A stretch of 64,000 nt of DNA from an uncultured Ruminococcus sp. (GTDB lineage: Bacteria; Bacillota; Clostridia; Oscillospirales; Acutalibacteraceae): positions 10,133 through 74,132 of the forward strand of contig CACWTQ010000022.1 of assembly GCA_902763835.1 (NCBI GenBank), given 5' to 3'. Below are positions 1-62,533 of this stretch, piece by piece (the first letter of the stretch is position 1; every line of letters starts with the position of its first letter). The position numbers and the translations under genes are program-made. The notes under the pieces are model-generated. The model saw only the letters and a list, made by a program, of their open reading frames with translations, searched no databases and was not told the DNA's origin.

Positions 1-87
1 GGTGACATCACTGCAAGACAGGCAGGTTCTGTCGGCGGTCAGATGGTTAAGAGAATGATTGAGAGCTACGAGAATTCCGTAAAGTAA
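1..87 (+). CDS. alpha/beta-type small acid-soluble spore protein, C-terminal 28 codons (5' end outside window)
   Basis: Frame +1 reads GDITARQAGSVGGQMVKRMIESYENSVK-stop. This matches the conserved T(S/A)R.NGSVGGE..KR(L/M)V core of alpha/beta SASPs. A hairpin terminator follows. Confidence 0.75.
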   Translation, partial: GDITARQAGSVGGQMVKRMIESYENSVK

Positions 88-160
88 TTTGTTTTTTAAT
101 TAATATTTTTGGATAATAAGAAACGGTAAGCATTATTTTGTTCCTCCTATATTGTTAATT

Positions 161-205
161 AAGGGTCGGTTACTTCGTTTTGAAGTTTCCGACCCTTTTA
201 TTCTA
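161..205 (+). terminator. intrinsic terminator after the SASP gene
   Basis: Stem AAGGGTCGG...CCGACCCTT (161-197) followed by TTATT. Confidence 0.55.
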
Positions 206-304
206 TAATATAATTTTGAAACAAAGGAAAATATAGTTATCAAAAAATATTATAGCTGTTATAAATTATTGCGTTTTAGATCTTAAAAAGGGCTACAACG
301 TTAA

Positions 305-541
305 CATCACTGCAAGATAGGCAGGTTCTGTCGGCGGTCAGATGGTTAAGGAACTGTCAGAAAATAAGTTGAACATTTATACTTGTCTAATTTGCCCTGT
401 GTGTCGTTACAACACCTTGAAATACGTCAGTATTCCTGCGGTGTTGTCACAGAATAAATTATCCTGCGTCTAAATTGTTCAACTTATTTCCCAACAGTTC
501 CTAAGAGAATGATTGAGAGCCACGAGAATTCCGTAAAGTAA
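305..541 (+). pseudogene. decayed duplicate of the SASP 3' end, interrupted by MITE copy M1
   Basis: 305-349 plus 505-541 align almost base-for-base with 7-87. There is no N-terminal coding part (upstream in-frame TAG), CAG has become TAG at 318-320, and the downstream terminator hairpin is decayed. Confidence 0.8.
350..501 (+). mobile_element. MITE-like TIR element M1 (152 bp, full length)
   Basis: Ends are GGAACTGTCAGAAAATAAGTTGAACATTTA ... TAAATTGTTCAACTTATTTCCCAACAGTTCC. It is flanked by TAA/TAA (347-349, 502-504). The paralogous uninterrupted site at 41-56 has a single TAA (48-50). Confidence 0.9.
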
Positions 542-701
542 ATTGCTTTTAATTTAAATTTTTTAGATAATAAGAAATAATAAATATCATCTTATTTCTT
601 CTATATTGTTAATTCAGGATTGGTCACTTGATTTTAGTATATTAGCATATCTTATTGAAATAACAGGATATTTTTCAGTGAACTTTTTATGAAGTTTGCC
701 T

Positions 702-13052: not shown

Positions 13053-13177
13053 GGAACTGTTGGGAAATAAGTTGAACAATTTATACGCAGGATAATTTGT
13101 TCTGTGTTAGGCACAACACCGCAGGAATACTGACGTATTTCAAGGTGTAAATGTTCAAGTTATTTTCTGACAGTTCC
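13053..13177 (-). mobile_element. MITE-like TIR element M2 (125 bp, internal deletion)
   Basis: It starts with GGAACTGTTGGGAAATAAGTTGAACAATTTA and ends with ...TTATTTTCTGACAGTTCC. Flanked by TAA/TAA (13050-13052, 13178-13180). Confidence 0.88.
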
Positions 13178-23458: not shown

Positions 23459-23630
23459 GGAACTGTTGGGAAATAAGTTGAACAATTTAGACGCAGGATA
23501 ATTTGTTCTGTGTTAGGCACAACACCGCAGGAATACTGACGTATTTCAAGTGACGTATTTCAAGGTGTTGTAACGACACACAGGGCAAATTAGACAAGTA
23601 TAAATGTTCAAGTTATTTTCTGACAGTTCC
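23459..23630 (-). mobile_element. MITE-like TIR element M3 (172 bp, with internal 14-bp duplication TGACGTATTTCAAG)
   Basis: Both TIRs are present and it is flanked by TTA/TTA (23456-23458, 23631-23633). Confidence 0.88.
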
Positions 23631-39724: not shown

Positions 39725-39878
39725 GGAACTGTCAGAAAATAACTTGAACATTTATACTTGTCTAATTTGCCCTGTGTGTCGTTACAACACCTTGAAATAC
39801 GTCAGTATTCCTGCGTGTGCCTAACACAGAACAAATTATCCTGCGTCTAAATTGTTCAACTTATTTCCCAACAGTTCC
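39725..39878 (+). mobile_element. MITE-like TIR element M4 (154 bp, full length)
   Basis: Both TIRs are present with TAA/TAA flanks (39722-39724, 39879-39881). It starts 3 nt after the stop of the preceding gene. Confidence 0.9.
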
Positions 39879-39998: not shown

Positions 39999-40147
39999 GG
40001 AACTGTCATAAAATAACTTGAACATTTATACTTGTCGAATTTGCCCTGTGTGTTGTGCCTAAGAGCCTGTTTAAAATCTTAGCGATACACGTCTTTTTGG
40101 CAAATTTTCCTGAGTCTAAATTGTTCAACTTATTTCCCAACAGTTCC
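39999..40147 (+). mobile_element. MITE-like TIR element M5 (149 bp, variant core)
   Basis: Both TIRs are present with TAA/TAA flanks (39996-39998, 40148-40150). About 45 nt of the core are replaced by unrelated sequence. It ends 6 nt before the proS GGAGG. Confidence 0.88.
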
Positions 40148-54018: not shown

Positions 54019-54108
54019 TATCACAATTAGGAACTGTTGGGAAATAAGTTGAACAATTTAGACAAGTATAGATGTTCAAGTTATTTTCTGACAGTTCCTT
54101 ACGCATTA
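54019..54108. repeat. module E copy split by MITE M7
   Basis: Left flank CTATCACAATTA plus right flank (TTA)CGCATTACAAA reconstructs CTATCACAATTACGCATTA, identical to 37534-37552. Confidence 0.8.
54030..54098 (-). mobile_element. MITE-like TIR element M7 (69 bp, TIR-only deletion derivative)
   Basis: GGAACTGTTGGGAAATAAGTTGAACAATTTAGACAAGTATAGATGTTCAAGTTATTTTCTGACAGTTCC with TTA/TTA flanks (54027-29, 54099-101). Confidence 0.88.
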
Positions 54109-54970: not shown

Positions 54971-55111
54971 GGAACTGTTGGGAAATAAGTTGAACAATTT
55001 AGACGCAGGATAATTTGTTCTGTGTTAGGCACAACACCGCAGGAATACTGACGTATTTCAAGGGGGCAAATTAGACAAGTATAAATGTTCAAGTTATTTT
55101 CTGACAGTTCC
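54971..55111 (-). mobile_element. MITE-like TIR element M8 (141 bp)
   Basis: Both TIRs are present with TTA/TTA flanks (54968-70, 55112-14). It lies between the phosphatase and Fic genes. Confidence 0.88.
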
Positions 55112-62464: not shown

Positions 62465-62533
62465 GGAACTGTTGGGAAATAAGTTGAACAATTTAGACAA
62501 GTATAAATGTTCAAGTTATTTTATGACAGTTCC
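62465..62533 (-). mobile_element. MITE-like TIR element M10 (69 bp, same deletion derivative as M7)
   Basis: It has the same breakpoint as M7 (..AATTTAGACAAGTATAAATG..) and TAA/TAA flanks (62462-64, 62534-36). Its last base completes the TAG stop of the protease gene. Confidence 0.88.

Follow-up and report, generated by a model that had tools for sequence, protein, structure and literature searches.

A non-autonomous DNA transposon, a MITE of 152 bp, inserted into a TAA of a tandem alpha/beta-type SASP gene copy that was already dead, in an uncultured Ruminococcus species, a reading to which we give a probability of about 0.85. The SASP pair lies at the beginning of the window, by which we mean the whole 64,000-nt stretch of DNA analysed. 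The intact gene (copy A) has the unoccupied target site and reads GGT-TAA-GAG, whereas its decayed neighbour (copy B) reads GGT-TAA-[350-501]-TAA-GAG. Across the insertion point, the two copies match at 45/46 nt on the left and at 36/37 nt on the right. When the element and one TAA are removed from copy B, the restored site is 98.2% identical over 57 nt to copy A (C22:10153-10209; C22 is the contig of the window). Thus, the preliminary description, which proposed from the letters alone that the element had inserted with a 3-bp TAA duplication and that the intact copy has a single TAA, is borne out on both counts, and the copies are homologous on both sides of the insertion point.

The intact SASP gene and its decayed tandem copy

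The full gene of copy A (G000:C22:10019-10219, where G000 is the genome of the window) encodes 66 aa and begins 114 nt upstream of window position 1. Its protein matches the PF00269 profile with 104.7 bits (E 2.5e-30), with residues 7-64 aligned to profile positions 1-58 of 59. In a profile search, copy A is the sole intact alpha/beta SASP match in the G000 assembly, which is 99.7% complete. A second, partial match at window ~279-356 covers profile positions 26-51 only and contains an in-frame TAG. The organism has a single alpha/beta SASP gene, and in annotation the second match is to be read as a pseudogene. The TAA of the empty site in copy A is out of frame and is no stop codon.

Copy B (window ~275-654) is a decayed tandem SASP copy interrupted by the element (Table 1). 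Its start codon is missing, as are ~25 codons at the 5' end of the coding sequence. Pairwise alignment of window 1-260 with 298-700 gives two blocks. In the first, 5-51 corresponds to 304-350 at 98% (46/47); in the second, 48-181 corresponds to 502-635 at 82%, and the 152 extra bases at 350-501 are in copy B. The CAG at 19-21 of copy A is TAG at 318-320 of copy B, and the part of copy B to the right of the insertion has a TAC>CAC change (Tyr>His) and ends in a stop codon at 539-541. The terminator of copy A folds with -24.2 kcal/mol (z -7.0), whereas its counterpart in copy B folds with -5.8 kcal/mol (z +0.4). The nonsense change and the decay of the hairpin are therefore as the preliminary description had them.

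The extent of the duplicate has to be redrawn. It had been described as a repeat of the 3' end of the gene, starting at 305 and devoid of the N-terminal coding part. The repeat itself, its dead state and the absence of that coding part hold; the start at 305 does not, since window 275-303 is also homologous to the SASP codons that precede the window (23/29 matches). Upstream of this segment, window 198-274 aligns with the start region of the gene with a score of 44, compared with 30.7 +/- 4.3 for shuffled sequences (4/500 shuffles reach 44), and the same level is equalled by 20/1500 random genomic segments (p about 0.01). This homology is only suggestive of the start of the gene having been within the duplicated unit. 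Copy B is probably a whole-gene duplicate with an internal deletion, rather than a mere 3' end.

The inserted element has the features that define a MITE: terminal inverted repeats, a target duplication of fixed length, small size, no coding capacity and many copies. The terminal inverted repeats are imperfect and 26-30 nt long (350-375 and 476-501); taken as 30-nt arms (349-378 / 473-502), they are 87% complementary. The whole element folds as a single long hairpin (-47.1 kcal/mol, z -7.4), and its only ORFs, of 24 and 43 aa, are chance frames. In the window, 17 occurrences of the element terminus were counted, where 0 are expected.

Table 1. Coordinates of the SASP pair, the inserted element and the IS ends. 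Positions are those of the window unless a contig of G000 is named.
Feature	Position	Strand	Basis or remark
Intact alpha/beta-type SASP gene (copy A), 3' end	1-87	+	PF00269 profile match
Empty target site, one TAA within GGT-TAA-GAG	48-50	+	alignment of copies
Intrinsic terminator of copy A	161-203	+	stem 161-176/182-197, then T-run; repeat detection and folding
Possible vestige of copy B RBS and start region, start codon lost	198-274	+	weak homology
Dead SASP copy (copy B), left of insertion	275-349	+	TAG nonsense at 318-320; G>V, D>N at 296-301
Left TAA of target-site duplication	347-349	+	alignment, census
MITE, 152 bp	350-501	+	158-bp family consensus minus 6 bp, 2 mismatches
Right TAA of target-site duplication	502-504	+	alignment, census
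Dead SASP copy (copy B), right of insertion	505-541	+	36/37 identical to window 51-87
Decayed 3' UTR and terminator of copy B	542-654	+	82 matches, 29 mismatches; no stable hairpin
IS left ends at contig ends	C60:10421-10581, C74:9327-9424, C123:5478-5572, C125:10837-10931, C171:6194-6289		
IS right ends at contig ends	C100:1-95, C9:33725-33855, C214:2334-2418		

Divergence of the copies and order of events

The two copies differ at 2/83 positions around the insertion, at 6/29 positions of the coding sequence just upstream and at 29/111 positions in the 3' UTR. Identity is thus 98% in the 83 bp around the insertion, compared with 74-79% in the flanks (Fisher p 3e-6, central tract against flanks). 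For scale, 32/129 four-fold degenerate sites (25%) in the neighbouring dockerin gene are different between G000 and the sister species G007. The simplest reading is that the duplication is about as old as the species split, or older. Wherever copy A and G007 differ within the central tract, copy B has the copy A state. This pattern suggests an ~83-bp gene-conversion patch between the live gene and the pseudogene before the insertion. The very clean match of the empty site probably owes its quality to this patch, which is later than the duplication.

In G007, the locus is 94% identical from the upstream gene through the promoter and the SASP gene to the terminator, and downstream of the terminator there is a 125-bp unrelated spacer followed by a convergent dockerin gene. 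The G007 locus has no second SASP copy, and there is no element in its single gene. A SASP protein identical to that of copy A is encoded on ten metagenome contigs. The tandem duplication, which was to be sought in related strains, is present in all conspecific contigs that reach copy B; copy B, its TAG and the MITE are at the same site in every conspecific metagenome contig reaching far enough, and several such contigs terminate within the element. An element-free second copy, for which the same strains were to be checked, was found in none of these conspecific contigs. A metagenome scan with a copy-B-specific pattern gave no match, and a second metagenome scan gave only distant SASP genes of 76-81% identity. 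Because no element-free strain was found, the pre-insertion state of copy B is read only from its paralogue.

The conspecific contigs carry a 158-bp form of the element, and 6 bp (GCCTAA) are deleted in G000; the deletion is thus specific to G000. Three of the metagenome contigs differ at the left junction, with a 25-bp deletion (L123), a 12-bp duplication (L124) and a 75-bp deletion (L131), which are strain variants or assembly errors.

The pattern of divergence bears on whether the insertion killed the gene. It is improbable that copy B was still functional as a second SASP gene when the MITE arrived and that the insertion inactivated it. The 98% identity to the live gene across the 83 bp that surround the insertion, with no synonymous change, could reflect recent purifying selection, but selection would not give 21% and 2.4% divergence within one 112-nt coding stretch. 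Moreover, the start codon and ~25 codons of the 5' part are missing, and the terminator is lost. The 29 nt just upstream are 21% diverged and have G>V and D>N replacements in the conserved GDITARQ motif. Finally, a second SASP match within 2.5 kb was seen at 0/85 SASP loci from other species, which counts against this reading. We therefore retain the reading in which copy B was dead when the element arrived.

The same figures date the two events relative to each other. The flanks of the copies are 21-26% diverged, whereas the element differs from the family consensus at 2/152 positions (1.3%), so the insertion is much younger than the duplication. The order given in the preliminary description, duplication before insertion, is supported by these relative ages. 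The reverse order, in which the element inserted into a single gene, the gene was then duplicated and copy A lost the element precisely, is very unlikely. Precise loss between short direct repeats is mechanistically possible, and no direct support for it was found. Against it stand the age difference, with the consensus being common to 21 identical copies, the lack of a footprint in copy A and the element-free single gene of G007; a MITE in the sole SASP gene would also have disrupted that gene.

On the reading that we prefer, the whole gene unit would first have been duplicated in tandem, long ago, after which copy B would have decayed, losing its 5' coding part and terminator. A patch of ~83 bp would then have been copied from the live gene into copy B by gene conversion. 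The MITE insertion, the TAG and the Tyr>His change would have followed, in no set order among themselves, and the 6-bp deletion within the MITE would have occurred last, in the G000 strain.

Target duplication and copy number of the MITE family

To define the family, termini were located throughout G000 (2.74 Mb) allowing up to 4 mismatches in 26 nt. The search returned 661 termini (about 330 copies); 229 copies are complete, with both ends, and no longer than 400 bp. The complete copies range from 69 to 238 bp, with modes at 69 bp and 158 bp. The 69-bp mini-form consists of the two ends alone and is the commonest size (96 copies). Copies of the family in the window are at 350-501, 13053-13177, 23459-23630, 39725-39878, 39999-40147, 44439-, 54030-54098, 54971-55111 and 62465-62533.

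In the triplet census, 223 copies could be oriented by their two distinguishable ends. Identical triplets flank 196/223 of them (TAA..TAA in 127, TTA..TTA in 66), whereas the inverted arrangement (TAA..TTA or TTA..TAA), which is expected if the triplet belonged to the element, is seen in 16/223. The triplet is thus a target duplication rather than a part of the element, since direct repeats prevail in the other copies. A duplication of 2 bp (TA) or 4 bp (TTAA) is ruled out by the census, and 5 bp does not fit either. TAA and TTA together make up 4.7% of the triplets of the genome, which indicates a strong preference for T-W-A targets.

Empty sites were also sought for the rest of the family. 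The element and one triplet were removed from 201 copies with a perfect duplication, and the restored sites were searched genome-wide for ungapped matches of 95% identity or more that extend over 18 nt or more to either side of the triplet. Matches elsewhere in the genome were obtained for 12/201 restored sites, one of which is the SASP site. The other 11 are ungapped only if one triplet is kept and are mostly within other repeats. As to location, the family is mostly intergenic: 26/201 restored sites are in an open frame of at least 100 codons and 6/201 in one of at least 200 codons, and many are within copies of a second repeat family or within other MITEs.

These counts leave little room for the view that the TAA triplets are an extension of the inverted repeat, or that the element integrated site-specifically beside a TAA without duplicating it. 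Two full-length ISAzo13 elements in metagenome contigs (L165 and L166) are flanked by TAA at their left end and by TTA at their right end, as an inverted-repeat extension would be, and another one of the 3-4 elements inspected is ambiguous. The inverted flanks of these two contrast with the direct repeat at the full-length element of G230 (described below) and at 88% of MITE copies, and a 3-bp direct duplication is thus not seen at every full-length IS examined. Among MITE copies, however, direct outnumber inverted arrangements 196 to 16, the paralogous empty site has exactly one TAA, and the 11 other restored sites likewise need one triplet to align; this explanation is accordingly most unlikely, and the preliminary concern that the extra TAA might be part of the element in other copies is answered. 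We hold to insertion with duplication of 3 bp.

The family is young, as 21 of its 59 full-length copies are identical to the family consensus. A total of 110 termini are within 150 bp of contig ends, so the assembly breaks at the MITE repeat, and the repeat explains the fragmentation of G000 into 232 contigs. That the tandem copy is itself an artefact of such a fragmented, repeat-rich draft is scarcely credible, given that independent metagenome assemblies (L122, L123, L124, L129 and L131) have the same arrangement and that the copies differ at many positions, as a collapsed or duplicated read path would not.

The number of termini per genome is about 660 in G000, 25 in the sister species G007, 17 in G013 and 0-4 in the other 19 species of the genus, the comparison genomes being possibly MAGs, which lose repeats. 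The terminus is absent from the viral contigs searched.

The central 26 nt of the MITE (window 416-441, CTTGAAATACGTCAGTATTCCTGCGG) are found in other species of the genus at 100% identity and many times per genome. There, the 26-nt core sits in the middle of another inverted-repeat element with ends GGAGSCACTGATTAAA and TAA or TTA flanks, that is, the same core with different ends (G019:C1:23080-23380, G009:C5:4300-4600, G014:C6:16300-16600 and G002:C1:68320-68620). Outside the genus, in another family of the order, a related MITE of 159 bp with ends GGAACTGTCAAGAAATAAGTTGACC is at positions 1504-1662 of L153 (G431:C101).

A candidate ISAzo13-family mobiliser and its relatives

Comparison of the ends identifies an ISAzo13-family insertion sequence as the most likely mobiliser of the MITE, an assignment that is well supported but not closed and that is based on the 3-bp T-W-A duplication together with the shared ends. 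A pattern search of 400 genomes of the order retrieved one full-length element with matching ends, in G230:C212; the G230 genome belongs to another family of the same order as the genome of the window. This IS is 1285 bp long, reads TAA-GGAACTGTTCAAAAATAACTTGACG...TCAAATTATTTTTGAACAGTTCC-TAA and contains a single ORF of 406 aa. The ORF matches PF07592 (DDE_Tnp_ISAZ013) with E 9.5e-119, and NCBI names the protein an ISAzo13 family transposase. When the left end of the G230 IS (TAA-GGAACTGTTCAAAAATAACTTGA...) is compared with the MITE A end (GGAACTGTCAGAAAATAACTTGA), the only differences are the 3 variable bases after GGAACTGT and 2 further in. The ends of the MITE and of the ISAzo13 IS both begin GGAACTGT...AAATAA.

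Ends of a similar IS are present in G000 (Table 1). At least 5 copies of its left end (GGAACTGTTTCAAAATAAATTAAACA...) were found, all flanked by TAA or TTA. The left end has the layout GGAACTGTTTCAAAATAAATTAAACAATTTAC...TATAAT...GGGAGGG-N6-ATG, with promoter, RBS and the beginning of an ORF; the copy on C60 extends through the first 21 codons of this ORF (MIGNDDVKEFAKSVLESLLP). The three right ends encode ...ELLNIEYLGPNEKWNYIIKPSV and a stop codon just before ...GAAACAGTTCC-TAA, and the right-end peptide (...GPNEKWNYIIKPSV, then stop) fits the C-terminal PFxxWNYxIxP motif of 120 retrieved ISAzo13 homologues. Three contig ends of the sister species G007 have an identical (100%) left end, likewise preceded by TAA or TTA. 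The IS ends in G000 have an 8-nt tip and T-W-A flanks in common with the MITE, and the IS interior is unassembled. These IS ends probably belong to the ISAzo13 family. Neither a transposase gene of this family nor any transposase flanked by these ends is present in the assembled G000 contigs. Because the assembly has no contigs under 2049 bp, a collapsed IS of ~1.3 kb would have been dropped, which is an explanation rather than a demonstration.

Other candidates were rejected. Among IS5-type transposases (PF01609, PF13359, PF13586 and PF05598 in G000; PF13359, the DDE_Tnp_4 profile, also genus-wide), no match is flanked by the MITE ends with GGAACTGT. On C96 there is a truncated DDE_Tnp_4-like fragment, but its ends are unrelated. 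Where two termini are 600-2600 bp apart, the DNA between them contains ordinary genes in every case and no transposase. Weak matches to the IS left end in G009, G013 and G007:C2 are AT-rich promoter regions rather than IS copies, and the IS right end of G000 was not found among 150 genomes of the family. On the minus strand of G000:C100:95-751, an ORF for a 218-aa DDE_Tnp_1-type transposase stops exactly at its junction with the ISAzo13-like right end, at which there is a TAA; apparently, one mobile element has cut another short.

A transposase, most likely provided in trans by an ISAzo13-family IS, would make 3-nt staggered cuts at T-W-A. Gap repair would then leave a TAA on either side of the element, and the intact neighbour would keep its unoccupied site.

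The likeness to the ISAzo13 family (ISfinder; PF07592) consists in the ends of the MITE, which begin like those of the complete element from the same order, and in the 3-bp duplication, which is reported both for ISAzo13 and for the related eukaryotic Zator (PMC10045372). The difference is that G000 shows IS ends only, with no assembled transposase gene. PIF/Harbinger is also reported to make a 3-bp target duplication (PMC2213677). Eukaryotic Tourist MITEs, which go with PIF/Harbinger, and Zator resemble the present family in the TAA/TTA target duplication of 3 bp, but their hosts are of the eukaryotic domain, and the PIF/Harbinger transposase also belongs to a different, IS5-like lineage.

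Like MITEs derived from bacterial IS, the present element is small, non-coding, hairpin-folding and multi-copy; about 330 copies in 2.7 Mb is, however, high for a bacterial MITE. Correia in Neisseria and RUP in Streptococcus pneumoniae are short inverted-repeat MITEs, mostly intergenic, present in many copies and mobilised in trans; their target duplication is TA, and they are associated with other IS families. The present family is likewise short, mostly intergenic and of many copies with inverted repeats, but its sequence is unrelated to theirs. In plant genomes, paralogous empty sites serve to prove transposon insertion, which is a standard argument. Here too, a duplicate without the element reveals the target as it was before the insertion, and with it how many bases were duplicated; the difference is that the host is a bacterium and that a neighbouring tandem gene copy serves as the paralogue.

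A literature search returned no description of an ISAzo13-derived MITE or of MITEs of this Ruminococcus group. The MITE family may be undescribed; the phenomenon itself is already known and is a textbook case with no new mechanism. From the SASP pair, insertion is proved without recourse to a second genome, and the length of the duplication in this family is set at 3 bp (T-W-A). ISAzo13 itself has been little studied. Tentatively, and with the odds somewhat against the whole of it, we suggest that an undescribed ISAzo13-derived MITE family underwent a very recent burst in one rumen Ruminococcus species (about 330 copies, compared with about 12 in the sister species), and that gene conversion may still be moving sequence between the dead SASP copy and the sole live SASP gene. 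If such conversion continues, an essential spore gene could receive the stop codon of the pseudogene, and even the MITE.
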